This document shows positions 6,537 to 22,246 of a DNA stretch of 24,000 nucleotides, one piece after another. This DNA comes from an uncultured Aestuariivirga sp. Its GTDB lineage: Bacteria; Pseudomonadota; Alphaproteobacteria; Rhizobiales; Aestuariivirgaceae. Where the stretch lies: contig CAZICN010000008.1 of NCBI GenBank assembly GCA_964537655.1, positions 5,499 through 29,498 of the forward strand. Direction: 5' to 3'. The first letter of the stretch is position 1. Every line of letters begins with the position of its first letter. The notes beneath the pieces were generated by a model. The model saw only the letters and a program-made list of their open reading frames with translations. It was not told the DNA's origin and did not search any database. The position numbers and the translations under genes were made by a program.

Positions 6537-6640
6537 GCGTCCTCTCCCCATTTGGGCGAGGCTGGCGTCGCTTGCCGCCTCGCTTGTGGATTCTTGATGT
6601 GAGCCCCGGCAGGCAAGGCTATCGGTGCCGTGTTAATGCG

Positions 6641-6692
6641 TTGGTAGAGCTTGGTGAAAGTAATGGCGGGTTTTGTGAAAAATTGTTAAAAG
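6641..6692. promoter_or_regulatory. Two pairs of adjacent decamer direct repeats in the divergent SBP/torR intergenic region (candidate TorR boxes)
   Basis: TTGGTAGAGC (6641-6650) and TTGGTGAAAG (6651-6660), then after 12 nt TTGTGAAAAA (6673-6682) and TTGTTAAAAG (6683-6692). A related TGTTAAT lies at 6631-6637. OmpR/PhoB-family regulators bind direct repeats of about 10 bp. Confidence 0.3.
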
Positions 6693-6700
6693 CAGGGGGC

Positions 6701-7420
6701 ATGAAGCCCTCAGCCGCCCATATCGTCATCGTCGAGGATGATCCTGTGACCCGGGCGAAGCTCGCGGCCTACTTCACCGAGGCCGGCTATCGCGTCAGCG
6801 AGGCGGAAGACGGCGAGGAGATGCGCGAGATCCTGGCCGAGCGTCCGGCCGAGCTCCTCATGATCGACATCCAGTTGCCGGGCGAGGACGGCCTGGCGCT
6901 CACGCGCGAGCTGCGCCAGGGCTCGGAAGTCGGCATCATCCTGGTCACCGGCCGCACCGACACGGTCGACCGCATCGTCGGGCTCGAGCTCGGCGCCGAT
7001 GATTATGTGACCAAACCCTTCGATCAGCGTGAGCTTCTGGCGCGAGTCAAGAATCTGCTGCGGCGGGTGCGCCGCGCGCCGTCGCCGCATGAAGCGGGCA
7101 CGGTGCGCCGGTTTCTCGGCTGGACGCTCGATCTCGCCAGCCGCACCTTGCGCGGCGCGGATGGCGATTTCGCCGATCTCACCCGCGCCGAGTTCAAGGC
7201 CCTGGCGCTGCTCTCGGCCAATCCGGGCCAGGTTCTGTCGCGCGACCGGCTGCTGCACGAGATCGCCCATCGCGACTGGGATCCGGCCGACCGCACCGTC
7301 GATGTGGTGATCAGGCGGCTGCGCCAGAAGCTCGGCGATGACTCGCGCCATCCGCGCATCATCGTCACCTCGCATGGCGAAGGCTATCTGTTCGCGCCCA
7401 CTCTCGGCCGCTCGTCCTGA
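6701..7420 (+). CDS. torR: OmpR/PhoB-family response regulator, TorR-like
   Basis: Inner start [30 protein letters not shown]... with SD AGGGGG upstream. It is close to collinear with E. coli TorR as I recall it (HIVIVEDEPVT..., [31 protein letters not shown]). It sits next to TorS- and TorT-like genes. Confidence 0.8.
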
Positions 7421-10275
7421 GCCATGCGCAGCATTTCCGTCGCCTCGGCGCTCGCCTGGCGATAGGCGGCCTCGCAGCGGGCGAGATGGCGGCCGGCCTC
7501 CGGGCCATGGCGCCGGCCGGCGCTCAGCTCAAGCGCCCGGGCGTCGCGGCCGAGCTGCGTGAAACCCGCGGCGGTTGCGGTGCTGTAGGTCGCGTGCGCC
7601 ATCTCCTTGAGGCTGTCGAAGTCTTCTGCCTGTGCTGCCTTGCGCATGCGGGCGAAACGTTTGGGCAGGGTTTCATCGGCCAGCGCGAAGATCCGGCGCA
7701 TCGCCTCGGGGCCGAGCGCGCCGATATCGGCGGCGAGCAGCGCCTTGTCGACCGCTGCCGCCGGGGCTTCGCTCACCTGCCCGATGGCCTGGGCGAGCGC
7801 CTCCAGATTGAGAGGCTTGGCGACATAGGCATCCATGCCCGAGGCCAGATAGCGCTCCACTTCTTCGGTGAAGACATGAGCCGACATGGCGATGATGGGG
7901 ATGTCCGATGCGCCGAGCGCCCGAAGCTCGCGCGCCGTCGCGATTCCGTCCTTGCCGGGCAGGCTGATATCCATCAGCACGAGGTCGGGAGCGATCGCGG
8001 CGAAGCGCGCACCCGCCTCATAGCCATCCGCCACCGCCTCGGCCTTGTGGCCCAGCATTTCGAGGAACTGGCTGGCGACGAGGCGCGTGGCCGGGTCGTC
8101 CTCGACCACCAGCACCTTCAGCGCTTGCCGTCTTGCGCTGGCCTTGCGGCTCTTCGTCATTCGTATTGGCGCCGCGGCGGCGGCCGGCGCCAAAGCGAGG
8201 TCGAGCGTGAACAGGCTGCCCTTGCCGGGCGTCGAGGTGACGGTGAGCGTGCCGCCCATGGCTTCGGCGAGGCCCCGTGAAATCGCGAGGCCAAGGCCCG
8301 TTCCGCCATAGCGCCGGGTCACCGAGGCATCGGTCTGGGTGAAGGATTCGAATATGCGCTGCCGCTGATCGGCGGCGATGCCGATGCCCGTGTCCTTCAC
8401 CGTGATGCGAAGCGCATGCCGGGCCTCGCGCTTCTCCACCATGGCGGCCTTCACGGCGATCTCGCCTTTCTCGGTGAACTTGATGGCGTTGCTCAGCAGG
8501 TTGAAGACGATCTGCCGGAGCTTGCCGGCATCGCCCGCATAATGGCGGGCGAGCTTGCGGTCGAGTGCGAGCGACAGCTTCAGTCCCTTCTCCTCGGCCG
8601 AGGGCCGCATCAGGGCGACGACGCCGTTCAGGAGATCGGCCGGATCGAAGACCATCATGTCGAGCGCGACCTTGTCGGATTCGATCTTCGAGTAATCGAG
8701 GATGCTGTTGAGGATGCCGAGGAGGGTTTCACCCGAATTGGCGGCGATCGTCACATGCTTGCGCTGCGTCGCGCTGAGCTCGTCCTCCTTCAGGATCCGC
8801 AGCATGCCGAGCATGCCCGTCATCGGCGTGCGGATCTCGTGGCTCATGGTGGCGAGGAAGGCCGACTTCGCCCGGCTCGCCATTTCGGCCGCGTCGCGCG
8901 CCTGGGCATGGCGCGCCACTTCCTGCTGCAGCTCACCGGTGCGTTGATGCACGAGGTCCTGCAGTTCCTCGCGGTGCCGGCGCAGTTCCTCGTGGTTGCG
9001 CGCCTGTTCGGCCTCCAGCGCCTGGCGCTTGCGCGTCTCGTCGCGGAAGGCGACGACGGCCGAGGACAGGGCCTGCAGCTCCTTCGCCCCTTCTTTTGAC
9101 ACCTCGACCGACAGGTCGCCTCGGGTCAGCTTCTGCATGGCGCCGGAGAGGGCGCCGAGCCGGCGCACGATGCCGCGCTCGACATAGAACCAGACGATGA
9201 GGCCCGAGAGCGCCACGGCGATGAGCGACAGGGCGAGGAGGACATAGAGGCCGGCATCGACCGCGCCTTGCGCCTGCGCCGAGGCGGTGCGGGCGGAGCT
9301 CTGCGATGCGTCGAGCATGCGCTGCGCCACCCGGCTGACTTCGGCGGAGAGATTGCTGTTGGCCTCGGCCACGCTTTCGAGATCGTCGCCGATCGCGATC
9401 AGCCGCAGCCTCTCGCCGAACAGGCTGAAGCCCACGGGCGCGTTGCCGGAAGCGGCATCGAGGATCTTGAGAAAGGCCTGCGCCTGCTCGCGCCGCACCG
9501 GATCGTCGATGCTGGCGACCCGCCGGCGCACCACCCTGAGATGCTCCTCATAGCCTCTGGCGATCTCCGCCACTTCGTTGCGGTCGGTGGTGCGCGTGAG
9601 CTGATTGGCGAGAAGGCCGATCTGCGAGCTTCGAAGCCGCAGCTCCCACATGCGGTCGAGCAGATAGATGTCCTGTTCGATGAGGCGGTCGAGCGCCTGA
9701 TACGCCTCTTCGCGCCGCGTGTCGTCGTCGATCAGCCCATAGAGGCTCGATATCACCGCCGACGTGCCGGCCGACGTGTTGGAGACGAGGGTTTCCGACA
9801 GGTCGACGATCGCGGTGGCGGCGCTGATGGTGCGCTCGGCGCGCCCGGCGAAGCTGTGCTGGAGCTGCAGCCGCTCCTTCACCAGCCGGTTCTGTGCGGT
9901 GAGATTGTGCATCAGGGCGCCGACCGTGCCGGAAAGCTTGCTGGTCGTGGCGCTGTCGAGCGAGGCGAGGCCGGCATCCGCCACCGATTTGCGGATATCT
10001 GCGGCAAGGGCCGCAAGCTCGGCCTCCTGGGCGGCGCGCGAGGCCTCGTCGCGGACCGCGGTCAGGGCCGGGGCGGAGGCGACGAGCCGGGCACTGGTCT
10101 CCGCCGTGCGCTGCGCCGCGGCCACCGCCGGCAGCGCTTCCTTGTTGATTCGCGACTGCGTGGTGGAGATGTCGCGCAGGATCAGCCAGCCGGCGACGCC
10201 CGAGGACAGCGACAGCGCCGTGATGCCCAGAAAGGCGATGAACAGGCGTGCGCCGATTCCCAATCTTGACAGCAT
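7384..10275 (-). CDS. torS: Hybrid sensor histidine kinase, TorS-like (periplasmic sensor, HAMP, HisKA, HATPase, REC, Hpt)
   Basis: Start chosen at [15 protein letters not shown]... (10275); the track start 10323 is possible. H-box [15 protein letters not shown]-box [10 protein letters not shown], receiver [13 protein letters not shown]...[15 protein letters not shown]-terminal Hpt-like [15 protein letters not shown]. Two TM segments flank a periplasmic region of about 300 aa. Confidence 0.8.
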
Positions 10276-11523: not shown

Positions 11524-13125
11524 TCAGGCCCCGGCCCGCACCGACGCCCAGTCGAGATCGAAACGGGCGAGGTATTTGCGCAGGCGGTCGGCGTCGTTGC
11601 CGCTCGTCTTCTCCTGGCGCGATGCGGCGAACAGCCGTCGGCCGGCGGCGCTGAGCGATGCGCTCTCGCGGCAGATGGCGATCACCGTGGCGAGCTGGGC
11701 CTGGTCGAAGAGATCGATCCGCGCGATGCGCTCCGGCGGAAAAACCTCGCGCAGCAGCTCACCCGGTTCGCCGCGGCGTCCGTCCGACCACAGGCTCTTG
11801 AGCCGCGCGATTTCTTCCTCGACGGTCGTCTCGTCGATGCGGCCCTTGGGCGCCAGCGTCACCATGCGGGTGATCGAGGCGGAAAGGTCGCGGAAATTGG
11901 CACGCCACTCCGCTTCGGCCGAGGTCGCGAAGGCGGTGAAGCGGGACCGCGCTTCCTTGTTGAAGGTGATCTTGGCGCCGTCGTCCTGGGCATGGCGCTC
12001 GAGCTCGAAGTCGATATTGGGCTCGATATCTTCCGATCTGTCCTTGAGGGCGGGCAGCGCGAAGGTCCACAGGTTGAGGCGCGCCAGCAGATCGTCGCGG
12101 AACCGCCCTGACCGCACCGCGTCATGGAGATCGCGGTTGGTGCCGGCGACGAGCTGGAAGTCGCTTGCCGTCTCCTTGTCGGCGCCGACCGCGAGGAAGC
12201 GTTTCTCCTCGATGGCGCGCAGGATCATCGCCTGTTCGTCGGGCCCGAGCTCGCCGATCTCGTCGAGAAACAAGAGGCCGCCATCGGCGGATTTGAGCAG
12301 GCCCGGCCGCGCCGACTGGGCGCCGGTAAAGGCGCCCTTCACATGGCCGAACAGCGAGGACATGGCGGTATCGCCGCGCAAGGTGGCGCAGTTCACGTCG
12401 ACGAATGGTCCTTCGATCTGGTGGCGCGACTTCTTGAGTTCATAGATGCGCCGCGCCAGCTGCGATTTGCCGGCGCCTGTCGGGCCGGTCAGCAGGAAGG
12501 GCGCCTTGGAATTGATGGCCACCTGCTCGATGCGGTCGATCATGCGGTTGAAGGCGGCGCTCCGCGTCGCGATGCCGGATTTGAGGAAGGACGCGGCGTC
12601 GTGCTGCTCGGCCCGGAAGCGCGTGGCGATCCGGTCATAGCGCGACAGGTCGAGATCGATGATCCGCATCGGGCTCGTGAGATCGCCGCGCGCTTTCCGG
12701 GGCGGCGAGAGTTGCAGGAGCCTCGCCGGGATATGGCGCGTCTCGGCGAGCAGGAACCAGCAGATCTGCTCCACATGTGTCCCGGTGGTGATGTTGATGA
12801 AATAGTCTTCCTTCTCCGTATCGAAGCTGCGGCCGCGGGCGAAATCATGCAGCGCGCCATAGACTTCCTCGAAATCCCAGGGGTCCTTGAGGTTGATGAC
12901 GACCGGCGCCACCTGGGTCTCGGGCGAGACCTGGTTGATGTCCTGGGTCAGCCGCTGGAAGAGACCGGCCGAGTGATTGTCATGGATGAGTTCGAGCCGG
13001 TGGACGATAAAATCCTCCTGCTGGCACACGGCGACCGTCGGCCGCCAGCGCTCCCACCGGTTCTCGTGTTTGGCGATATCGAGTTTGGTGCCGATGAAGC
13101 CGATGACGACATTGGTCCTGCTCAT
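11524..13125 (-). CDS. rtcR: RtcR, sigma54-dependent enhancer-binding activator with N-terminal CARF-like sensor domain
   Basis: Near full-length collinearity with E. coli RtcR as recalled (WRPT..CQQE....RLEL.HD, NPWDFEEVY..LHDFARG, INITTGTHV.QICWFLLAE, IIDLDLSRY, GPTGAGKS, GAFTGA, ESFCS-less AAA+ core, C-terminal DADRLRKYLARF). ATG at 13125, with a TTG one codon upstream. The stop abuts the torT stop. Confidence 0.95.
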   Translation of the reverse strand: MSRTNVVIGFIGTKLDIAKHENRWERWRPTVAVCQQEDFIVHRLELIHDNHSAGLFQRLTQDINQVSPETQVAPVVINLKDPWDFEEVYGALHDFARGRSFDTEKEDYFINITTGTHVEQICWFLLAETRHIPARLLQLSPPRKARGDLTSPMRIIDLDLSRYDRIATRFRAEQHDAASFLKSGIATRSAAFNRMIDRIEQVAINSKAPFLLTGPTGAGKSQLARRIYELKKSRHQIEGPFVDVNCATLRGDTAMSSLFGHVKGAFTGAQSARPGLLKSADGGLLFLDEIGELGPDEQAMILRAIEEKRFLAVGADKETASDFQLVAGTNRDLHDAVRSGRFRDDLLARLNLWTFALPALKDRSEDIEPNIDFELERHAQDDGAKITFNKEARSRFTAFATSAEAEWRANFRDLSASITRMVTLAPKGRIDETTVEEEIARLKSLWSDGRRGEPGELLREVFPPERIARIDLFDQAQLATVIAICRESASLSAAGRRLFAASRQEKTSGNDADRLRKYLARFDLDWASVRAGA

Positions 13126-13266
13126 CAAGGACTTATATCAAAAGATAAAAGACAATCCAATAGTATCTATTCTAGCGGAAGAATGGAGGAAGGGCGGGCG
13201 AAGAAAGAAAAATATAAAATAGTAATATCAATTAGATATACGAATTCTGGCGGATCCTCCCACGTC

Positions 13267-13282
13267 TGGCACGCAGGCTGCA
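13267..13282 (+). promoter_or_regulatory. Sigma54 (-24/-12) promoter of the rsr operon
   Basis: TGGCACGcaggCTGCA matches TGGCACG-N4-TTGCW at 15 of 16 positions with correct GG/GC spacing. It lies 33 nt upstream of the rsr ATG, with SD AAGGGAAAG between them, and is divergent from rtcR. Confidence 0.85.
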
Positions 13283-13314
13283 ATGGTGTGCGCGTACACA
13301 AAGGGAAAGAAGCC

Positions 13315-14874
13315 ATGGCAAACAAATCCGTGTTTGCATCGACGATCGGAAGGCTGCTTCCGCGTGCGAATGCCTGGAATCACGAGAAGGCTCCGGCCTA
13401 TGGCCTTGTGCCGCGCGCTGCGCTGGCGCAACTGGCCGCGACCGGGACCTTCAACCGGACCTTCTATGCGGAGCCGCGGGAGCAGCTCGATCAGGTGCTG
13501 AAGCTGGCATGGAAGGTGGATTCCGCCTTCATCGCCAGGACGGCGATCTATGCGCGCGAGAAGGGGCACATGAAGGACATGCCGGCGGCTTTGCTGGCGG
13601 TCCTCGCCACGCTCGATACGGGTGATTTCGCCAAGGCGTTTCCGCGGGTGATCACGAACGGGCGCATGCTGCGCAATTTCGTGCAGGTCATCCGATCGGG
13701 TGCGGTTGGCCGCAAGTCCCTGGGCTCGCGCCCGAAGCGCATGATCCTGGGCTGGCTGGCTTCGGCGTCGGATGAGGACATTCTGCGCGCGAGCATCGGC
13801 AACGATCCCTCGCTCGCCGATATCATCCGCATGGTGCATCCCAAGCCCGAGACGAAGACGCGCGAAGCGCTTTATGGCTATGTGATCGGCCGTCCCTATG
13901 ACGCTGACGCGTTGCCGCAGATCGTGAAGGATCTCGAAGCCTTCAAGCGCGACCCGTCTTTGCCGGTTCCGGCGGTGCCGTTCCAGTTGCTGACCGCGCT
14001 GCCGCTGACGCAGAAGCAGTGGGCTTCGGTGGCCGAGACGGCGTCCTGGCAGACCTTGCGCCAGGGGCTCAACACCTTCGCGCGTCACGGCGTGTTCGGC
14101 ATTGCCGGCATGTCGGAGCGCGTGGCCGAGCGCCTCGCCGACGCGAAGGCGATCGCCCGCGCCAAGGTTTTTCCCTATCAGCTGATGGCGGCCTATGCCG
14201 CCTCGGCCGGGGAAGTGCCGAAGCCGGTGCGCAACGCCTTGCAGGATGCGATGGAAATCGCCATTGGCAATGTGCCGGAGCTCGATCAGCGGATCGTCGT
14301 CTGCCCGGATGTTTCGGGTTCGATGTCGTCCCCGGTGACGGGTCACCGCAAGGGTGCGTCGAGCGCGGTGCGCTGCATCGATGTCGCGGCTTTGGTGGCC
14401 GCGTCCTTCCTGCGCCGCAACGCGAAGGTCGAGGTGCTGCCTTTCGAGCAGGATGTGGTCGATATCGACCTCAACCCGCGAGATACGGTGCTGACCAACG
14501 CGGCCAAGCTCGCCAGGATCGGCGGTGGCGGAACCAACTGCTCGGCGCCGCTGGCGCGACTGGCGCGTGAGAAGGCGAAGGTCGACCTCGTCATCTTCGT
14601 TTCCGATAACGAATCCTGGGTGGATGCATCCAAGGGTGGCGCGACCGGAACGACGACGATGAAGGCCTGGGAGAGGGTGAAGCGGGTAAATCCTGAAGCC
14701 AAGCTCGTTTGCATCGACATCCAGCCCTACATAACGACGCAGGCGGTCGAGCGCGAGGACATCCTGAATGTCGGAGGTTTCTCCGATACGGTGTTCGAGA
14801 TGATCGCCGCCTTCGCCGAGAACCGGCTGGGGGCGGATCACTGGATCGGCGAGATCGAGAAGATCGCGCTGTAA
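13315..14874 (+). CDS. rsr: Ro60 ortholog Rsr (TROVE domain plus vWA/MIDAS domain)
   Basis: 519 aa starting MANKSVFASTIGRLLP... TROVE-like N-terminal two thirds (TFYAEPREQLDQVL...ARTAIYAREKGHMKDMPA) and a C-terminal vWA with MIDAS DVSGSM. The 916-aa track ORF 12124..14874 is this gene plus an antisense-to-rtcR read-through. Confidence 0.9.
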   Translation: MANKSVFASTIGRLLPRANAWNHEKAPAYGLVPRAALAQLAATGTFNRTFYAEPREQLDQVLKLAWKVDSAFIARTAIYAREKGHMKDMPAALLAVLATLDTGDFAKAFPRVITNGRMLRNFVQVIRSGAVGRKSLGSRPKRMILGWLASASDEDILRASIGNDPSLADIIRMVHPKPETKTREALYGYVIGRPYDADALPQIVKDLEAFKRDPSLPVPAVPFQLLTALPLTQKQWASVAETASWQTLRQGLNTFARHGVFGIAGMSERVAERLADAKAIARAKVFPYQLMAAYAASAGEVPKPVRNALQDAMEIAIGNVPELDQRIVVCPDVSGSMSSPVTGHRKGASSAVRCIDVAALVAASFLRRNAKVEVLPFEQDVVDIDLNPRDTVLTNAAKLARIGGGGTNCSAPLARLAREKAKVDLVIFVSDNESWVDASKGGATGTTTMKAWERVKRVNPEAKLVCIDIQPYITTQAVEREDILNVGGFSDTVFEMIAAFAENRLGADHWIGEIEKIAL

Positions 14875-14881
14875 CGATAAG

Positions 14882-14908
14882 GGACCACGGGGCGGCGTCT
14901 CGTGGTCC
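14882..14908 (+). other. Stem-loop immediately after the rsr stop
   Basis: GGACCACG (14882-14889) pairs with CGTGGTCC (14901-14908), with an 11-nt loop. Its function is unknown; it could be a processing or stability element, or the 5' boundary of the ncRNA array. Confidence 0.4.
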
Positions 14909-14917
14909 AGCGAAATG

Positions 14918-14985
14918 GGTGAATGCGGACAGGAATACAGTGGAACCGAGGGTTCAAATCCCCATTCTTGTCCTCCTTTGTCACC
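14918..14985 (+). ncRNA. Y-RNA-like module A (minimal: two stacked stems plus a T-loop-like hairpin)
   Basis: Outer stem GGTGA (14918-14922):TCACC (14981-14985). A 10-bp stem GGACAGGAAT (14927-14936):ATTCTTGTCC (14964-14973) with one G.T pair. Internal GGGTTCAAATCCC. It shares the GAATGC, AATACAG, T-loop and TTCTTGTC blocks with modules B and C in the same order. Confidence 0.45.
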
Positions 14986-14986
14986 A

Positions 14987-15123
14987 CCGCGGGGCGAATG
15001 CCTGCGGGACTACAGGGTAGAGCGCCTGCCGGTATGGCAGGAGGTCGGGGGTTCGTATCCTCCCGCCGGTGAAAGCCGGGCGTAGCTCAGGAAACGTCTC
15101 GCAACCATCTTGTCGCCTGGCGG
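14987..15123 (+). ncRNA. Y-RNA-like module B with tRNA-like domain (anticodon-like arm, T arm, loop-closed acceptor, split D stem)
   Basis: Terminal stem 14987-14997:15113-15123 (11 positions, one G.G mismatch, one G.T pair). Second stem 15003-15008:15098-15103. GGTAGAGCG-CCTGC-CGGTATG-GCAGG-AGGTC-GGGGG-TTCGTAT-CCTCC has exact tRNA spacing. Closed hairpin CGCCGG-tgaaag-CCGGGCG, then TAGCTCAGG. Confidence 0.6.
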
Positions 15124-15139
15124 ATTGATTGGAAGGAAC

Positions 15140-15279
15140 AGGCCCTTACGAATGCCGATGGAACTACAGATCGTTAATCTCCGTGTCGCGGGTTCGAATC
15201 CCGCCAGGTCCCCCAATATGGACCTGTAGCTCAGGTGGATAGAGCAGGCTGTTTCATCACCTTCTTGTCGTAAGGACCT
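15140..15279 (+). ncRNA. YrlA-like Y RNA (module C): Ro-type stem plus circularly permuted tRNA-like domain
   Basis: Terminal stem AGGCCCTTACGA (15140-15151):TCGTAAGGACCT (15268-15279) with one C.A mismatch. Second stem 15157-15162:15253-15258 plus 15166-15169:15249-15252. Canonical T arm GCGGG-TTCGAAT-CCCGC (15188-15204). Acceptor CAGGTCC (15205-15211) / GGACCTG (15220-15226) closed by CCCAATAT. TA, then D arm GCTC-AGGTGGATA-GAGC (15229-15245). It lies directly downstream of rsr, as the Y RNAs do in Salmonella. Confidence 0.7.
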
Positions 15280-15298
15280 TCATTGGTAAGTAAAGAAA

Positions 15299-15844
15299 AT
15301 GGAAAAGAACATCACTCGGCTCAGCAAGTTTCTGAGCTACATTCTGCGCCACGCACCGGATGAGATCGGTCTCGTATTGAGCGAGGGCGGCTGGGTCTCG
15401 GCCAGCGAGCTCATCGCCAAAGCGGGCGCGCATGGATATCAGCTCACGCCGGAAATCCTCCGCGAAATCGTGGCGAGCAATGACAAAAAGCGCTTCACCT
15501 TGTCGCCGGATGGGGCGCGGATCAGGGCGGCGCAAGGTCATTCAGTGGCCGTCAGTCTCGATCTGGCACCGGTCACGCCACCGAGCCAGCTTTATCATGG
15601 CACGGCGGCGAAGGTGCTGGACAAGATCCTGGCGGAAGGCCTCACGCCGCAAACACGCCAGCATGTCCACCTCTCGCTCGATAGGGAGACGGCGCGCAAG
15701 GTGGGCATGCGGCACGGCAAGCCGGTCATTCTCCTCGTCGCGGCGGATCGGATGCATCATGATGGCCTGCATTTCTACAAGGCCGACAATGGCGTCTGGC
15801 TGACCAGCCATGTGGCGCCGCATTATTTGACTGTGAAGGATTGA
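15299..15844 (+). CDS. kptA: RNA 2'-phosphotransferase (Tpt1/KptA family, NAD-dependent)
   Basis: 181 aa. SKFLSYILRHAPDEIGLVLSEGGW...DKKRF...IRAAQGHS...LYHGT...HVHLS...A.KVG.RHG.PVIL...NGVWLT are collinear with E. coli KptA as recalled, including the R-H-R-R catalytic-type motifs (LRH, RAxQGHS, HVHLS). Confidence 0.9.
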   Translation: MEKNITRLSKFLSYILRHAPDEIGLVLSEGGWVSASELIAKAGAHGYQLTPEILREIVASNDKKRFTLSPDGARIRAAQGHSVAVSLDLAPVTPPSQLYHGTAAKVLDKILAEGLTPQTRQHVHLSLDRETARKVGMRHGKPVILLVAADRMHHDGLHFYKADNGVWLTSHVAPHYLTVKD

Positions 15845-15849
15845 AGACC

Positions 15850-17085
<1,236 letters not shown>

Positions 17086-17086
17086 C

Positions 17087-17131
17087 GCGTGATCCGGAAA
17101 AGTGGATGCCGGTTTTCCGATAAGATCACGC
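17087..17131. repeat. REP-like palindromic repeat (copy 1 in the rtcB-rtcA spacer)
   Basis: GCGTGATC-CGGAAAA-gtggatgccgg-TTTTCCG-ataa-GATCACGC. Outer stem 8 bp plus inner stem 7 bp, with an ATAA bulge. Confidence 0.7.
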
Positions 17132-17144
17132 GCAAAATAATGAC

Positions 17145-17210
17145 GCATCGGCCCGAAAAGCTCGTGGCCGGGTTAAACCCGGCCATCCCGGTTTTCGGAT
17201 AAGCCGATGC
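17145..17210. repeat. REP-like palindromic repeat (copy 2), carrying a nested 19-bp perfect palindrome
   Basis: GCATCGGC-CCGAAAA-...-TTTTCGG-ataa-GCCGATGC. The arms are identical to the 22179-22221 copy. Here the loop is expanded by GGCCGGGTT-A-AACCCGGCC (17166-17184). Confidence 0.75.
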
Positions 17211-17228
17211 GAAATTAGGATAAAGCAA

Positions 17229-18248
17229 ATGTTGACCATCGATGGCAGTCAGGGCGAGGGCGGCGGGCAGATCCTGCGCTCGGCTCTGACGCTTTCCTTG
17301 CTGACGGGCGAACCGTTCCGGATCGAGAACATCCGGGCCGGCCGCGCCAAGCCGGGCCTGCTGCGCCAGCATCTGGCGGCAGTGAAGGCGGCCGTGCAGA
17401 TTTCCGGCGGCAAGGCCCAGGGTGTCGAGCTCGGCTCGACCGCGATTACCTTCGAGCCGGGCGAGGTGCGGGCGGGCGACTATGCCTTTGCCATTGGCTC
17501 GGCGGGAGCCGCTTCGCTCGTCTTTCAGACTGTGTTCCTGCCGCTGGCGCGGCAGACGGCGGCCTCGCGTGTCACCATCGAAGGCGGCACGCACAATTTC
17601 GCAGCACCGCCCTTCGAGTTTCTCGACCGCGCCTTTCTTCCCGCGGTGGGCCGGATGGGCTTCGATGCGAAGCTCACTTTGCATCGGCATGGCTTCTATC
17701 CGGCGGGCGGCGGCAAGCTCGAGGCCGGGATCGGCCCGGTGCGCGCCGCGCCTGCGCGTTTTGCGCTCGAGGATCGCGGTGCGCTGCTGTCACGCACCGG
17801 CGAGGCGATGTTCGCCAATCTGGCCTTCGATATCGCCCAGCGCGAAGCCGGCAAGCTTCGGGAGCTTCTCCGGCTCGCCGACGGCGATGTGAAGATCAGG
17901 GAGGTCAAGGCCTCGGGGCCGGGCAATCTGCTGTGGATCGAGATCCGCCATGAACATGTCACCGATGTCTTCACCGCGCATGGCGAGCTCGGCGTCTCGG
18001 CCGAGCAGGTCGCGGGCAAGGTGGCGAAGCAGGTCGAGAAATATATCGAGAGCGAGGTCGCCATTGGCGCGCATCTCGCCGATCAGCTCTTGCTGCCCCT
18101 GGCGCTGGCGGGCGGTGGCCGCTTCACCACCACGAGGCCGACGCCGCATACCCACAGCAATATTGCGGTCATCGAGAAGTTCCTGCCCGTCGAGATCACG
18201 ATCGCCGAGACCGGACGCGGCGGGCGTCTGATCGAGGTGTCGCTGTAG
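17229..18248 (+). CDS. rtcA: RNA 3'-terminal phosphate cyclase RtcA
   Basis: LTIDGSQGEGGGQILRSALTLSLLTGEPFRIENIRAGRAKPGLLRQHL, AIGSAG, RHGFYPAGGG, ADQLLLPLALAG, TNIAVIEKFLPV are collinear with E. coli RtcA as recalled. Confidence 0.95.
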   Translation: MLTIDGSQGEGGGQILRSALTLSLLTGEPFRIENIRAGRAKPGLLRQHLAAVKAAVQISGGKAQGVELGSTAITFEPGEVRAGDYAFAIGSAGAASLVFQTVFLPLARQTAASRVTIEGGTHNFAAPPFEFLDRAFLPAVGRMGFDAKLTLHRHGFYPAGGGKLEAGIGPVRAAPARFALEDRGALLSRTGEAMFANLAFDIAQREAGKLRELLRLADGDVKIREVKASGPGNLLWIEIRHEHVTDVFTAHGELGVSAEQVAGKVAKQVEKYIESEVAIGAHLADQLLLPLALAGGGRFTTTRPTPHTHSNIAVIEKFLPVEITIAETGRGGRLIEVSL

Positions 18249-18249
18249 A

Positions 18250-18277
18250 GGCAATGCGCGCCGCCCACGGCATTGCC
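18250..18277 (+). terminator. Stem-loop after rtcA (possible terminator or operon boundary; no U-tract)
   Basis: GGCAATGC (18250-18257) pairs with GCATTGCC (18270-18277), with a 12-nt GC-rich loop. It starts 2 nt after the rtcA stop. No T-run follows, so its termination function is uncertain. Confidence 0.3.
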
Positions 18278-18311
18278 GATGGCGGGGCTGCCGGGCCATA
18301 GTCGGAAGGTC

Positions 18312-19919
18312 ATGACGGCGGCGTGGGATTATATCATTGTCGGGGCGGGCTCGGCCGGCTGCGCGGTGGCCGGCCGCCTGAGCGAGAATGGCCGGCATCG
18401 CGTGCTGCTTCTCGAGGCCGGACCTTCCGACCGCAATGTCTGGATCCGCATGCCGATCGGTTATGGCCGCACCTTCTATGATGGCCGCGTCAACTGGATG
18501 TACGAGACCGAGCCGGTTCCGGGACTAAACGGGCGTGTGAGCTACTGGCCGCGCGGCAAGGTCCTCGGCGGGTCGAGCTCGATCAATGCCATGGTCTATT
18601 CGCGCGGCCAGGCGTCCGATTTCGACGGCTGGGAGGCGCTGGGCAATCCGGGCTGGGGTTGGAAGGATGTCCTCGCCACCTATCGCAGGCTCGAGGATCA
18701 TGATCTGGGGACAAGCGAGTGGCATGGCAGCGGCGGGCCCGTGCATGTCACGACCATCGACGGCCAGGAACATCCGCTGAGCCGCCTCTTCATCGCCGCC
18801 GCACAGGAGACGGGGCTCGCCTTCACTTCCGACCTCAATGGAAGCACGATCGAAGGCGCCGGCCTCTATCAGATCACCACCCGCAAGGGCTTTCGCGAAT
18901 CCGCCGCCTCCGCCTATTTGCGGCCGAGGCCCAATCTTCGCGTGATGACCGGCGTCCAGGCGGCCCGCATCCTCTTCGAGGGCAGGAAGGCCGTCGGCAT
19001 CGCCTTTCGCCAGGGCGACGTGACCTGTGAGATGCGCGCCGGCCGCGAGGTCATCGTCAGTGCCGGCGCGGTGGGCTCGCCGCAGCTCCTGCAGCTTTCG
19101 GGGCTGGGCCCGGCCGCCCTTCTGCAGCGCCATGGCATTGCGGTGGTGAAGGACTGCGCCGCGGTCGGCCGCAATCTGCAGGACCATCTCTGTTATGATT
19201 TCACCTACCGCACCCGGGCGCCGAGCCTGAACAGCGTGTTGCGTCCCTGGCACGGCAAGCTCAGGGCTGGTCTCCAATATATATTGACGCGCAAGGGGCC
19301 GCTGTCGCTGAGTCTCAACCAGGCGGGCGGCTATTACCGCTCCGGCCCGGCGCTGCGGGCGCCCGACATCCAGCTTTATTTCTCGCCGCTCACCTATGAG
19401 AAGGCGCCGCCCAGAACCAGGCCGTTGATGTCGCCCGATCCGTTTCCGGGATTCTATACCAGCATCTCGCCCTGCAAGCCGAAGAGCGCCGGTCACCTGG
19501 AGATCAGGTCGGCGGATGCGCGCGAGCATCCGGTCATTCACCCGAACTATCTCTCCGAGCCTGGTGATCTGGCCGAGATGGTGCAGGCGGCACGCTTTCT
19601 GCGCCGGCTCGGCGATGCGCCGAGCTTCGCCGGGGTGATCGATGCCGAGCTCAAGCCCGGCAAGTCGGTCGAAAGTGACGCGGCGCTCGCCGAGGATATC
19701 CGCAACCGCGCCTACTCCGTGTTTCATCCGGTCGGCAGTTGCCGGATGGGTCCCGATCCGGCGACGGCCGTCGTCGATTCCCGCCTGCGCGTCCATGGCA
19801 TTGAGGCCTTGCGCGTCATCGACGCGTCGATCTTTCCGGTGATCACGTCCGGCAACACCAACGCGCCCTCTATCATGGTGGGCGAGAGAGGGGCGAGCTT
19901 CGTTCTGGAGAACGGATAG
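18312..19919 (+). CDS. GMC-family FAD oxidoreductase (choline/alcohol dehydrogenase-like)
   Basis: Inner start MTAAWDYIIVGAGSAGCAVAGRLSE with SD GGAAGG. GMC signatures GKVLGGSSSINAMVY and HPVGSCRMG...VVDSRLRVHGIEALRVIDASIFP. Confidence 0.9.
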   Translation: MTAAWDYIIVGAGSAGCAVAGRLSENGRHRVLLLEAGPSDRNVWIRMPIGYGRTFYDGRVNWMYETEPVPGLNGRVSYWPRGKVLGGSSSINAMVYSRGQASDFDGWEALGNPGWGWKDVLATYRRLEDHDLGTSEWHGSGGPVHVTTIDGQEHPLSRLFIAAAQETGLAFTSDLNGSTIEGAGLYQITTRKGFRESAASAYLRPRPNLRVMTGVQAARILFEGRKAVGIAFRQGDVTCEMRAGREVIVSAGAVGSPQLLQLSGLGPAALLQRHGIAVVKDCAAVGRNLQDHLCYDFTYRTRAPSLNSVLRPWHGKLRAGLQYILTRKGPLSLSLNQAGGYYRSGPALRAPDIQLYFSPLTYEKAPPRTRPLMSPDPFPGFYTSISPCKPKSAGHLEIRSADAREHPVIHPNYLSEPGDLAEMVQAARFLRRLGDAPSFAGVIDAELKPGKSVESDAALAEDIRNRAYSVFHPVGSCRMGPDPATAVVDSRLRVHGIEALRVIDASIFPVITSGNTNAPSIMVGERGASFVLENG

Positions 19920-19990
19920 GCTCTGCGGCGGCGGGGCCGAACCCATAAAAGGCAGGCCGATCAGCAGGTTAGGTATTATCCGGCACTCAC

Positions 19991-20024
19991 TTCAATAGAT
20001 TGTATAAAATATTCAATAGACAAT
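19991..20024. promoter_or_regulatory. AT-rich operator/promoter-like repeats upstream of the DapA-family gene
   Basis: A perfect 9-bp direct repeat TTCAATAGA at 19991-19999 and 20012-20020 (21-bp period). An imperfect 19-bp palindrome ATTGtATAaaaTATtCAAT at 19999-20017 (7 of 9 arm pairs). ATTGT (19999-20003) / ACAAT (20020-20024). Confidence 0.4.
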
Positions 20025-20080
20025 ATGAGAATCTTGCTGTAGGAAGCCTCTCACGATCAGCCCTTACTGCGAGGACTCCC

Positions 20081-21019
20081 ATGACATCGAGCCGCTGCTC
20101 CTGGACCGGCGTATTTCCGGCCGTCACCACCCAGTTCAAGAATGACGGACATTTCACGCTCGATCTCGACGCGACCGCCGGCGTCATCGAAGGCCTCATC
20201 CGCGACGGCGTCTCCGGCCTCATCGTCTGCGGCACGGTGGGCGAGGGCTGCTCGCTCACCCGCGCCGAGAAGCTCGGCGTCTATGAAATGGCGAAGTCGG
20301 TGGCGGCGAAGCGCGTCCCGGTCATTGGCGGGGTCGCCGAATATACGACGCCCTTCGCCATCGACACCGCGCGCGCCGCCGAACGCCTCGGGCTTGACGG
20401 CGTGATGGTCATGCCGGCGCTGGTCTATTCGGCGAAGCCCTTCGAGACGGTGGCGCATTACCGCGCCGTCGCCTCGGCGATCAGCCTGCCGCTGATGGTC
20501 TACAACAACCCGCCGATCTACCGGATCGATGTGACGCCGCAGATGCTCGCCGGCCTCGCCGACATCGACAATGTCGTCTGCTTCAAGGAATCCTCGGGCG
20601 ACACCCGCCGCTTCATCGATCTGAAGAACCTGGTCGGCGACCGCTTCACTTTGTTCGCCGGTCTCGATGATGTGGTTCTCGAAAGCATCGCCGTCGGCGC
20701 CGTCGGCTGGGTGTCGGGCCTCTCCAATGTCTTTCCGCGCGAAGGCGAGACCCTGTTCCGCCTGGCGCGCCAGGGCCGCTTCGCCGAGGCCATGGCGATC
20801 TACACCTGGTTCATGCCACTCCTCCATCTCGACGCCAGGCCCGATCTCGTTCAGTGCATCAAGCTGTGCGAGAACTTGGCCGGCCGCGGCTCGGCTCTGA
20901 CGCGCCCGCCGCGGCTGCCTCTGACGGAGATCGAGCAGGCCGAGATCGCCGCGATGATGAAGAAGGCGCTGGCGACGCGGCCGGGACTGCCGGATGTCGG
21001 CCTCGCCATCGCGGCCTGA
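20081..21019 (+). CDS. Dihydrodipicolinate synthase/N-acetylneuraminate lyase family (class I aldolase/dehydratase)
   Basis: Inner start MTSSRCSWTGVFPAVTTQF with SD GAGGA. GLIVCGTVGE, MVYNNPP, and the Schiff-base lysine context VVCFKESSGD. The specific substrate cannot be called from sequence. Confidence 0.8.
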   Translation: MTSSRCSWTGVFPAVTTQFKNDGHFTLDLDATAGVIEGLIRDGVSGLIVCGTVGEGCSLTRAEKLGVYEMAKSVAAKRVPVIGGVAEYTTPFAIDTARAAERLGLDGVMVMPALVYSAKPFETVAHYRAVASAISLPLMVYNNPPIYRIDVTPQMLAGLADIDNVVCFKESSGDTRRFIDLKNLVGDRFTLFAGLDDVVLESIAVGAVGWVSGLSNVFPREGETLFRLARQGRFAEAMAIYTWFMPLLHLDARPDLVQCIKLCENLAGRGSALTRPPRLPLTEIEQAEIAAMMKKALATRPGLPDVGLAIAA

Positions 21020-22178: not shown

Positions 22179-22221
22179 GCATCGGCCCGAAAAGTTGCAG
22201 ACTTTTCGGATAAGCCGATGC
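22179..22221. repeat. REP-like palindromic repeat (short form of the 17145-17210 element)
   Basis: GCATCGGCCCGAAAAG-ttgcaga-CTTTTCGGATAAGCCGATGC. The 16-nt left arm and 19-nt right arm are identical to the copy at 17145-17210. It starts 2 nt after the SDR stop. Confidence 0.75.
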
Positions 22222-22246
22222 GCCGTAACAATTAAAGTGAGAGCAC

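Follow-up and report, generated by a model that had tools for sequence, protein, structure and literature searches.

A predicted RtcR/sigma-54-controlled RNA-repair operon of the rsr-Y RNA-rtcBA class with kptA and a cloverleaf tRNA-mimic module

An RNA-repair locus found in the window (the whole 24,000-nucleotide stretch of DNA analysed) belongs to the known class of RtcR-controlled rsr-Y RNA-rtcBA operons and shows two variant features with respect to this class: kptA lies between the Y RNAs and rtcB, and the second RNA module is a cloverleaf tRNA mimic. Apart from these, the operon is an ordinary member of a well-described class, for which the Salmonella operon and the RtcR ligand (PMC7790460) and the Y RNAs adjoining rsr (PMC4201824) have been documented. 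The open reading frames lie where the earlier note had placed them, the start of rtcR being corrected to the ATG at 13125 from the TTG at 13128. Divergent from rtcR on the minus strand, the plus strand carries rsr, three RNA modules, kptA, rtcB, and rtcA in this order (Table 1). It is very probable that the genes of the locus form a single RNA-repair operon of the RtcR class that is inducible by damage.

Table 1. Features of the RNA-repair locus (positions in the window)
Feature	Position	Strand	Basis or remark
Whole RNA-repair locus	11524-18248		rtcR minus; rsr, RNA modules, kptA, rtcB, rtcA plus
rtcR: sigma-54 enhancer-binding activator, N-terminal RtcR/CARF domain, 533 aa	11524..13125	-	Pfam and NCBIfam
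Conserved block TATCCAATAGTAT(TGG) adjoining rtcR start	13154..13169	.	Kept in all 5 clade loci, spacer divergent
Predicted sigma-54 -24/-12 promoter element TGGCACGCAGGCTGCA, 33 nt 5' of rsr ATG	13267-13282	+	Motif match and conservation
rsr: Ro60/TROVE + vWA ring protein, 519 aa	13315..14874	+	Pfam and family profile
GC-rich hairpin immediately 3' of rsr stop, without U tract	14882..14908	+	Fold -21.5 kcal/mol, z-score -4.25
Y RNA module 1: P1/P2 (GGUGAAUGC...UUUGUCACC) around weak T-arm-like hairpin	14915..14988	+	Model R1
Y RNA module 2 ("type 2"): full cloverleaf tRNA mimic	14990..15120	+	Model R1, covariation
Module 2 P1	14992-14997/15113-15118	+	
Module 2 P2	15003-15010/15096-15103	+	
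Module 2 D stem	15020-15023/15085-15088	+	
Module 2 anticodon-arm-like hairpin	15025-15041	+	
Module 2 T arm	15047-15063	+	
Module 2 capped acceptor hairpin	15064-15082	+	
Y RNA module 3: probable canonical YrlA with capped acceptor stem, T arm, and closed D arm	15144..15277	+	Rfam RF02553
kptA: predicted Tpt1/KptA NAD+-dependent RNA 2'-phosphotransferase, 181 aa	15299..15844	+	Pfam, NCBIfam, alignment
rtcB: predicted 3'-phosphate/5'-OH RNA ligase, 411 aa	15850..17085	+	Pfam RtcB 9.9e-131
Two palindromic REP-like units between rtcB and rtcA	17087-17133 and 17145-17211	.	Within 143-nt gap
rtcA: predicted RNA 3'-terminal phosphate cyclase, 339 aa	17229..18248	+	Pfam and NCBIfam

All five protein families were borne out by profile tests (Pfam, NCBIfam, and an Rsr family profile); each of the family assignments proposed earlier could have failed in these searches, and none did. 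The rtcR product matches the Pfam families RtcR/CARF (1.5e-80) and Sigma54_activat (1.7e-49) and passed the NCBIfam RNA_repair_RtcR equivalog (821 bits, cut-off 650). The product of rsr, which starts with the ATG at 13315, matches Pfam vWA_Ro60 (3.5e-19), with a marginal TROVE match, and does not reach the narrow NCBIfam Rsr equivalog (74.5 bits vs. 900), while the Rsr family profile matches Rsr from D. radiodurans (PDB 2NVO, 7.7e-30) and Ro60 from Xenopus (1YVP, 5e-12), in both cases near full length. The start of rtcB at the ATG at 15850 is also the one called in Logan contigs. RtcA is recognized by Pfam RTC (3.1e-72) and RTC_insert (2e-11) and passed the NCBIfam equivalog (410 bits vs. 352). 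The rtcB-rtcA gap was confirmed as REP-filled; one of its two REP-like units has a further copy at 22179-22222, and in T. lacteus the units are absent and the gap is only 16 nt.

The sigma-54 promoter, described earlier as a 15/16 match, was recovered with one mismatch to TGGCAC-N5-TTGCW, divergent from rtcR. Since 0.59 such matches are expected per window by chance, the box match taken alone is no proof. In five clade loci the -24/-12 box does not vary, while the rest of the spacer is divergent, and in other rtcR-linked loci it lies about 50 nt 5' of rsr. In addition, 27 of 79 loci have a strict version 48-138 nt 5' of rsr, the background being two matches in 1.6 Mb. The TATCCAATAGTAT block forms a perfect palindrome (CCAATA-N-TATTGG) in relatives and is a candidate for either a site bound by RtcR or an element of the rtcR promoter. 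The earlier assignment to the Salmonella type of RtcR/sigma-54 operon (rsr-yrlBA-rtcBA) is supported by the divergence of rtcR, by the conservation of the -24/-12 box, by the gene order on one strand, and by the tightness of the kptA-rtcB junction.

The nearest named relatives are Taklimakanibacter species (Hyphomicrobiales), whose layout is identical. T. lacteus, T. albus, Rhizobiales bacterium Y(2018), and one Parvibaculaceae MAG all have the complete order, from rtcR through rsr, three modules, kptA, and rtcB to rtcA, and the captured parts of two other loci (L092 and L172) and of seven Logan contigs agree with it; across all these loci, KptA identity drops to 70%. A second, divergent lineage (L095/L096) has the order Y RNAs-kptA-rtcB-X-rtcA, with KptA 61% and RtcB 65% identical. 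Neighbourhoods combining rsr, kptA, and rtcB, which the earlier note had suggested surveying, do exist, but of 80 species-level rsr loci only three (four named genomes when T. albus is counted), together with a few metagenome contigs, have kptA between the Y RNAs and rtcB.

A general scheme for the operon can be proposed. By analogy with Salmonella, in which RtcR has been shown to sense tRNA fragments with a 2',3'-cyclic phosphate end (PMC7790460), the CARF domain of RtcR would respond to the same inducing signal here and would switch on the sigma-54 promoter. The transcript would encode Rsr and then be processed into three Y RNAs, all of them having a Ro-binding stem to which Rsr would presumably bind; two of the three are tRNA-shaped. 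The Y RNAs may tether or gate Rsr and may attract partners recognising tRNA shape. Co-transcription would extend through kptA, rtcB, and rtcA. RtcB would join 3'-phosphate or 2',3'-cyclic phosphate ends to 5'-OH ends, and RtcA would re-cyclise 3'-phosphate and 2'-phosphate ends, making them usable by RtcB. KptA, probably translationally coupled to RtcB, would add the NAD+-dependent erasure of 2'-phosphates, without which broken or rejoined tRNA-like RNAs would stay non-functional.

With regard to KptA, the protein matches Pfam PTS_2-RNA (2.6e-50) and passed the NCBIfam equivalog (248.9 bits vs. 239). Its nearest solved homologue is Tpt1 from Runella slithyformis (7KW8), to which it aligns without gaps (E 1e-48), and the catalytic tetrad, as defined in PMC6097658, is intact (R17, H18, R65, and R120, equivalent to Runella R16, H17, R64, and R119). 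Only 5 nt separate the kptA stop from the rtcB ATG, a ribosome-binding site (GAAGGA) being within the end of kptA, and wherever gene calls cover the junction, this spacing is the same. The chemistry of Tpt1 has been described previously (PMC6097658, PMC6573784). Because RtcB ligation leaves no 2'-phosphate in its products, which is established chemistry (PMC6097658), the canonical Tpt1 substrate is not expected from this pathway. The "end-healing" role that the earlier note had inferred for KptA is, in its simple form, doubtful, because Runella Tpt1 removes internal 2'-phosphates, not terminal ones, and is inept at terminal 2'- or 3'-phosphates (PMC6573784).

It could be argued that kptA travels with the operon as a passenger: in one lineage, a resident housekeeping gene would have come to lie between the Y RNAs and rtcB, where it is co-transcribed without a functional tie to Rsr, RtcB, or RtcA. 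The linkage is indeed rare, not only among the rsr loci but also among metagenome KptA loci, where it was seen in four of 80 (the other 76 had no rtc or rsr gene on the available DNA, many contigs being short), and the nearest KptA relatives beyond the clade, 61-70% identical, mostly stand alone (among them those of Fulvimarina, Tautonia, P0016, and P0019). The operons of other lineages hold other accessory genes (RlaP, zf_Tbcl plus HEAT, and unknown proteins), so the operon appears to tolerate insertions. Nevertheless, the passenger reading seems rather unlikely, since the arrangement is kept while KptA falls to 70% identity, with the 5-nt junction persisting where visible, and turns up again in a lineage with only 65% RtcB identity. 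Moreover, the association is chemically sensible for an RNA-end or RNA-junction enzyme, and RlaP, the other accessory gene identified, is likewise annotated as an RNA-repair protein.

On the other hand, KptA might be active in the operon, but not as the eraser of 2'-phosphates at repair junctions: it may add an ADP-ribose cap to 5'-phosphate ends of RNA, or it may remove regulatory internal 2'-phosphates from tRNAs or tRNA-like Y RNAs. [quoted passage not shown]

The transcription of the locus as a single unit also has to be weighed against its hairpins. The hairpin behind rsr recurs with a different sequence at the same position in four other loci (L007, L013, L014, and L172) and is possibly a processing boundary or a stabiliser of the mRNA 3' end; this hairpin and the REP-like hairpins 5' of rtcA could uncouple the expression of parts of the operon. 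A complete division into two units, rsr with the Y RNAs and kptA-rtcB-rtcA, would make the hairpin or the RNA array a terminator or processing barrier and would place an unrecognised promoter 5' of kptA. Such a division would suit the very stable, conserved hairpin and the distance of only 23 nt between module 3 and the kptA ATG, and the simple promoter scan covered only sigma-70-type promoters. We regard it as distinctly improbable, since the hairpin has no U tract, the scan of positions 13000-20200 returned no sigma-70-type promoter and no intrinsic terminator, a promoter with its enhancer does not fit between module 3 and kptA, and Salmonella rsr-yrlBA-rtcBA is a single RtcR-dependent operon (PMC7790460). 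One operon is still the preferred reading.

The spacer between rsr and kptA, which the earlier note had described as about 400 nt of structured non-coding DNA with three modules, proved to be a non-coding stretch of 424 nt with exactly three RNA modules, all having a Ro-binding stem. An unfiltered covariance model run over 13000-18500 gave three matches (143.9, 30.4, and 24.5 bits), the next best scoring 13 bits. Among 150 modules, 98% of the cells in stems P1/P2 pair, with compensatory changes at 14 of 14 pairs, and the 5'-strand motif of the Ro-binding stem is about 345 times enriched directly 3' of rsr. The Ro-binding motif reads GGUGAAUG, GGCGAAUG, and UACGAAUG in the three modules, only GGCGAAUG fitting GNCGAA exactly. 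The three modules are present in every clade member. Their number does exceed the two of Salmonella, as claimed, but it is no expansion among rsr loci; since the median is about four modules per locus and the maximum seven (80 species-level loci, strict motif), the present locus stands at the low end. The claim of three tRNA-like modules likewise holds for the count, but they are unlike each other: module 3 is probably a canonical YrlA, module 1 is short with a weak T arm, and module 2 represents another tRNA-mimic class.

No match at gathering score was found in Rfam among the RNA modules, and ARAGORN called no tRNA over the window. Module 3 matches RF02553 over its full length with 66 bits (E 6.9e-15), 3 bits short of the gathering score of 69, and its L014 ortholog reaches 70 bits with the same model. 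Module 1, separated from module 2 by 1 nt, was retrieved by model R1 (24.5 bits, E 1.5e-5) via P1/P2 only, and its inner domain varies in the clade between a T arm, a GGCC-GGAA-GGCC hairpin, and a plain hairpin. Because module 1 has no match to Rfam YrlA and module 2 scores 23.7 bits, neither is a YrlA member.

Module 2 has a capped acceptor end and carries the Ro-binding stem within its D loop. This type-2 class occurs in 46 of the 80 rsr loci, and the YrlA model at gathering score never called it in 10 loci. Model R1 retrieves 64 type-2 homologues, in which 97.1% of cells pair (36-61% in slid controls) and 32 of 35 pairs show compensatory changes. When module 2 is re-permuted in silico, ARAGORN calls a 74-nt tRNA. 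As tRNAs, the type-2 modules were rejected and are regarded as mimics: none of the 64 is called in its native strand order and 32 only after re-permutation, many with abnormal anticodon loops. T-arm and D-arm sequences for which neither ARAGORN nor Rfam (gathering score) calls a gene might suggest that the spacer consists of decayed tRNA genes or repeats instead of functional Y RNAs, but this is highly implausible, since every helix is maintained by compensatory changes among 64 and 150 homologues, the Ro-binding motif is enriched directly 3' of rsr, module 3 is a full-length YrlA match (E 7e-15), and all clade members keep the three modules.

A joint reading of the two variant features may tentatively be put forward. 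According to it, kptA would mark here the physiological niche of bacterial Tpt1/KptA, acting with RtcA and RtcB on 2'-phosphate-bearing damaged tRNA-type RNAs under RtcR control, and module 2 would represent an undescribed, widespread Ro-associated RNA class in which a whole tRNA body has its opening in the D loop. The modules, which are closely packed, may act as one multi-Ro scaffold offering tRNA decoys or guides to the repair enzymes. The function of KptA in bacteria, where the ligase producing the classical Tpt1/KptA substrate is missing, is an acknowledged open question (PMC6573784), and the probable translational coupling of kptA to rtcB under a damage-sensing activator provides a defined, genetically tractable setting for the substrate search. 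A second tRNA-mimic class and arrays of four to seven Ro-binding modules, which are common at rsr loci, widen the bacterial Y RNA repertoire and bear on proposals that tRNA-shaped RNAs serve as RNA-ligation helpers or nuclease decoys.

The operon of Salmonella Typhimurium is reportedly the subject of work by Chen et al. in 2013 and 2014. Its rsr-yrlBA-rtcBA genes (PMC7790460) share with the present locus the divergent CARF-AAA+ activator, the sigma-54 promoter, and a one-strand order in which rsr comes first, the Y RNAs precede rtcB, and rtcA follows. The kptA gene before rtcB and the REP-like insertion between rtcB and rtcA are features of the present locus, which also has three modules instead of two, the middle one being of a different tRNA-mimic class. 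The rtcBA/RtcR system of E. coli has RtcR, the sigma-54 promoter, the RtcB ligase, and the RtcA cyclase in common with it, but, unlike the present locus, the E. coli operon is devoid of rsr, Y RNAs, and kptA, the last of which is presumably located elsewhere in that genome.

The tRNA fold of YrlA is known from a crystal structure (6CU1; bioRxiv 10.1101/312249). Module 3 matches YrlA (RF02553) over its full length, at a score slightly below gathering, and has a T arm, a closed D arm, a capped acceptor stem, and a Ro-binding motif of the GNCGAA type. Module 2 resembles YrlA in its Ro-binding stems, its T arm, and its capped acceptor stem; however, its chain enters and leaves via the D loop and not the anticodon stem, and an anticodon-arm-like hairpin is retained. 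Runella slithyformis likewise has a bacterial Tpt1 in a putative RNA-repair cluster (PMC6097658), but that cluster contains HD-Pnk and an ATP-dependent ligase-like protein, without RtcB, RtcA, Rsr, or Y RNAs. Finally, circularly permuted tRNA genes and the b7a-tRNA beside RtcB (10.1101/312249) resemble module 2 in being tRNA-shaped with a rearranged strand order, or in being a tRNA-like RNA encoded beside RtcB. In contrast to these, module 2 is opened in the D loop, where it carries the Ro-binding helix, and has neither a free CCA end nor a conserved anticodon loop. Module 2 mimics a tRNA rather than being the precursor of one.

The gene map of the window was derived from an ORF listing and Pfam profile searches, which assigned the RtcR/sigma-54, Ro60, KptA, RtcB and RtcA families to the five genes of the locus and thus bore out the gene map that an earlier note had read from the sequence alone. 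RtcR, KptA and RtcA each score above the NCBIfam equivalog cut-off. An Rsr-family profile finds the structure of D. radiodurans Rsr (2NVO) at 7.7e-30, as well as a phage Ro60 and Xenopus Ro60, near full length. The alignment of KptA with Runella Tpt1 (7KW8; E 1e-48) is gap-free, and KptA retains R17, H18, R65 and R120, the counterparts of four residues reported to be essential in the Runella enzyme (PMC6097658). The kptA stop codon is separated from the rtcB ATG by 5 nt, and a ribosome-binding site, GAAGGA, is located within the 3′ end of kptA. No toxin or nuclease partner was found in the 24-kb window, where the genes around the locus serve transport, regulation and metabolism. A GMC oxidoreductase gene starting at about 18312, 63 nt after rtcA, was rejected as an operon member, given that a gene on the opposite strand lies between rtcA and the GMC gene in Taklimakanibacter albus; its position next to rtcA is not conserved.

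Features of the locus and of related rsr loci (L-numbers denote relatives' loci fetched for comparison)
Feature	Position	Strand	Evidence or remark
rtcR	11524-13125	minus	Pfam RtcR/CARF domain, 1.5e-80; sigma-54 interaction domain, 1.7e-49
Sigma-54 -24/-12 box	13267-13282		TGGCACGCAGGCTGCA; 33 nt before the rsr ATG, in the AT-rich divergent spacer
rsr	13315-14874	plus	Pfam Ro60 vWA domain, 3.5e-19; TROVE match marginal
Post-rsr hairpin	14882-14908		-21.5 kcal/mol; z-score -4.25
Y RNA module 1	14915-14988	plus	Covariance model 24.5 bits (14915-14988)
Y RNA module 2 (type 2)	14990-15120	plus	Covariance model 143.9 bits (14990-15120)
Y RNA module 3	15144-15277	plus	Covariance model 30.4 bits (15144-15275)
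kptA	15299-15844	plus	Pfam PTS_2-RNA, 2.6e-50
rtcB	15850-17085	plus	Pfam RtcB, 1e-130
REP-like units	17087-17133 and 17145-17211		Palindromic
rtcA	17229-18248	plus	Pfam RTC, 3e-72, plus RTC_insert
REP-like unit, recurring	22179-22222		3′ of the stop codon of a dehydrogenase gene
Type-2 modules, examples	L041:7050-7188; L032:7332-7470 and 7080-7209; L055:2219-2342; L062:7478-7603		
rtcB-rtcA accessory genes	L063:8464-9306; L073:8556-9194 and 9231-10055; L054:9211-10005; L062:8875-9993; L072:8554-9714; L088:8287-8988; L095:2440-3270		

Only one site in the window, the sigma-54 box, fits TGGCAC-N5-TTGCW with a single mismatch; because 0.59 such matches are expected by chance, the bare pattern is not significant alone, and the argument for a promoter rests on position and conservation. 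The box is invariant across five related loci, the rest of whose spacers is poorly conserved. A strict box was detected 48-138 nt 5′ of rsr in 27 of 79 loci (background, 2 matches per 1.6 Mb), and inspection of the upstream sequences revealed TGGCACG 5′ of rsr in most other rtcR-linked loci, next to a variant -12 box read as CTTGA, CTTGT or TTCGC. Neither a sigma-70-type promoter nor an intrinsic terminator was called between 13000 and 20200.

The rtcR-rsr spacer also contains a palindrome, CCAATA-N-TATTGG (13154-13169), which is imperfect in the window copy and conserved at aligned positions in four relatives (L012, L007, L013 and L014), as well as a conserved ATATCA block; both are candidate RtcR or IHF sites. 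In the rsr loci of Pyrinomonadaceae and other Acidobacteriota without an rtcR match (L058, L071, L075, L077, L084 and L087), the TGGCAC box is absent 5′ of rsr, and some of them have a T-arm-like sequence, GAAGGTTCGACTCCTTC, just 5′ of rsr instead.

The rsr stop is immediately followed by a GC-rich hairpin that lacks a U tract. Inspection of the individual sequences shows that relatives also form a hairpin at the equivalent position, although its sequence differs; RNAalifold is weakened by a REP-like insertion in the metagenome locus L092, a clade member. There, a related REP-like copy (L092:1243-1288) directly follows the rsr stop, where other clade members keep the hairpin.

All three Y RNA modules start with N-GAAUGC-N8-A(A/C)UACA and end with (C/U)UUGUC-N, and the next-best match of the unfiltered covariance model within 13000-18500 reaches 13 bits. 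In an alignment of 150 homologous modules, 98% of the cells of the outer Ro-binding stems, P1 and P2, are paired, compared with 33-76% in slid controls, and compensatory changes occur in 14/14 pairs. At one P2 pair (columns 19/334 of alignment A4; 15007/15099 in module 2), 109 of the 150 modules have a G-U wobble, a possible Ro-recognition feature. Rfam at the gathering score called no match in the window, nor did ARAGORN call a tRNA; the modules are detected only in Rfam E-value mode or with a purpose-built covariance model. Module 3 matches Rfam YrlA over its full length with 66 bits (gathering score 69; E 6.9e-15), its ortholog in L014 reaches 70 bits, and it is probably a canonical YrlA. 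Module 1 is short, with an inner domain that takes the form of a weak T arm in the window, of a GGCC-GGAA-GGCC hairpin in T. albus and of a plain hairpin in the related locus L172.

The earlier note had also regarded the RNA part as expanded, with three modules rather than two, a claim that did not survive comparison. A strict Ro-stem 5′-strand motif has 312 matches just 3′ of rsr (3.0 per kb) versus 14 elsewhere in these loci (0.009 per kb), which corresponds to 0 to 7 modules per rsr locus with a median of about 4; three modules are therefore typical or low, and no expansion. The covariance-model count gave 332 matches in 82 sources. Chen et al. 2014 had already noted that some rsr genes have multiple YrlA RNAs nearby (355 RNAs in 276 genomes; PMC4201824). 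Tandem arrays of five to seven Ro-stem modules were seen directly 3′ of rsr in L025, L027 and L043 (about 6600-7700), and such arrays are found in many other rsr loci of L015-L091, including Mesorhizobium, Rhizobium, Verrucomicrobiota and others.

Module 2 represents a strongly supported and apparently uncatalogued class of tRNA mimics, type 2. It is composed of the 5′ strands of P1 and P2, UACAGGGUA, GAGC and a hairpin at the place of the anticodon arm, followed by AGGUC, a T arm and a loop-closed acceptor-like stem, and then by UA, GCUC, AGGAAAC and the 3′ strands of P2 and P1. GCUC-AG and GGUA-GAGC together make up a standard D arm, one half each, which places the Ro-binding helix within the D loop, near positions 16/17. 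The residues U8, A14, G15, G18-G19, A21 and C48 are all retained, as is the T loop. The loop of the anticodon-arm-like hairpin varies from 3 to 10 nt among type-2 copies, often as a tetraloop, and is therefore not an anticodon loop.

The five clade copies were used to build a type-2 model, R1, with which 64 copies scoring above 56 bits were found in 48 sources. Such modules are present in 46 of 80 species-level rsr loci gathered with an Rsr profile, in Alphaproteobacteria, Verrucomicrobiota and Burkholderiales, and 15 loci have two or three copies. In the alignment of the 64 copies, 97.1% of the cells pair, a percentage inflated by fitting the alignment to the model, although this fitting does not account for the large variety of pair types; 32 of the 35 pairs are changed on both sides. 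Slid controls gave 36-61%, and 0/500 shuffles reached any measure. When the copies were re-permuted in silico, with the acceptor cap cut and the D loop closed, ARAGORN called 32/64 as tRNA genes, including the window copy (74 nt), compared with 0/64 in native order and 0/640 shuffles. Rfam YrlA gives module 2 a score of 23.7 bits and, in ten loci with type-2 copies, calls none but the canonical YrlA modules at the gathering score. No description of the class was found in a literature search that did not extend to key reviews and supplements.

With regard to kptA, the exact protein occurs on seven Logan contigs only, with the same flanking genes on the longer ones. The nearest named genomes are those of Taklimakanibacter lacteus (Rsr 93% identical; KptA and RtcB 97%) and T. 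albus, a genus classified in Aestuariivirgaceae, Hyphomicrobiales; both have the gene order of this locus and partly shared outside neighbours. Of the 80 rsr loci, just three include kptA within the operon, those of T. lacteus, Rhizobiales bacterium Y(2018) and a Parvibaculaceae MAG; beyond this set, T. albus, L092 and L172 have it as well. KptA homologues outside the clade, 61-70% identical, are mostly encoded by stand-alone genes. In metagenomes, rtc or rsr genes are near kptA, within the sequence available, in only 4 of 80 KptA loci, many of which are on short contigs. One of the four is a clade member, and two, L095 and L096, represent a lineage with 65% identical RtcB and the order Y RNAs (including YrlA), kptA, rtcB, a 277-aa protein without a Pfam match, and rtcA. 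Linked loci are few, yet they also occur in this divergent lineage, and the linkage is therefore rare but recurrent.

Accessory genes between rtcB and rtcA of other rsr-rtc operons encode RlaP (2.5e-96), a zf_Tbcl+HEAT protein and several proteins of 234-387 aa without a Pfam match. In L031 (4149-5570), L060 (7183-8637) and most Mesorhizobium/Rhizobium loci (L021-L043), the sole RtcB-family protein is divergent (about 27% identical, 474-485 aa, RtcB domain C-terminal); rtcA was not seen in the 5-kb flank of most of these loci and is present at L031. In gene order and identity, the rsr locus of a record titled Mycobacterium sp. KBS0706 (L020, NZ_VCCH02000080.1) is close to the Inquilinus loci L017, L024 and L029, and the organism name may be wrong.

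In the window, the 143-nt gap between rtcB and rtcA contains two REP-like units, whose family shows the pattern GCATCGGCCCGAAAAG...CTTTTCGGATAAGCCGATGC. Because this gap measures only 16 nt in T. lacteus, the insertion is a recent one; it may influence the expression of rtcA and is no conserved part of the system.

By homology with Salmonella (PMC7790460), RtcR would be kept inactive via its CARF domain until it binds tRNA fragments with 2′,3′-cyclic phosphate ends. Activated RtcR would then act on the sigma-54 promoter, and the transcript would yield Rsr, the three Y RNAs, KptA and RtcB, probably translationally coupled, and RtcA. The Y RNAs are probably bound by Rsr via P1/P2, with their tRNA-shaped domains presented. 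RtcB is predicted to join 3′-phosphate or cyclic-phosphate ends to 5′-OH ends, and RtcA would remake cyclic ends, including from 2′-phosphate ends (Das and Shuman 2013, as cited in PMC7790460 and PMC4201824). Most plausibly, KptA would use NAD+ to remove 2′-phosphates. RtcB junctions carry no 2′-phosphate, and Tpt1 also has alternative reactions. The nearest solved KptA homologue removes internal phosphates, not terminal ones (PMC6573784).

Protein families, promoter and gene order support the RNA-repair reading of the earlier note, the RNA expansion excepted, and the locus can be read with good confidence as one RtcR-class RNA-repair operon. With more reserve, KptA is favoured as a functionally integrated component, not a passenger. 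The locus is a variant of the well-known rsr-Y RNA-rtcBA system, and its value lies in the rare but recurrent coupling of kptA with rtcB and in an apparently uncatalogued class of tRNA-mimic RNAs.
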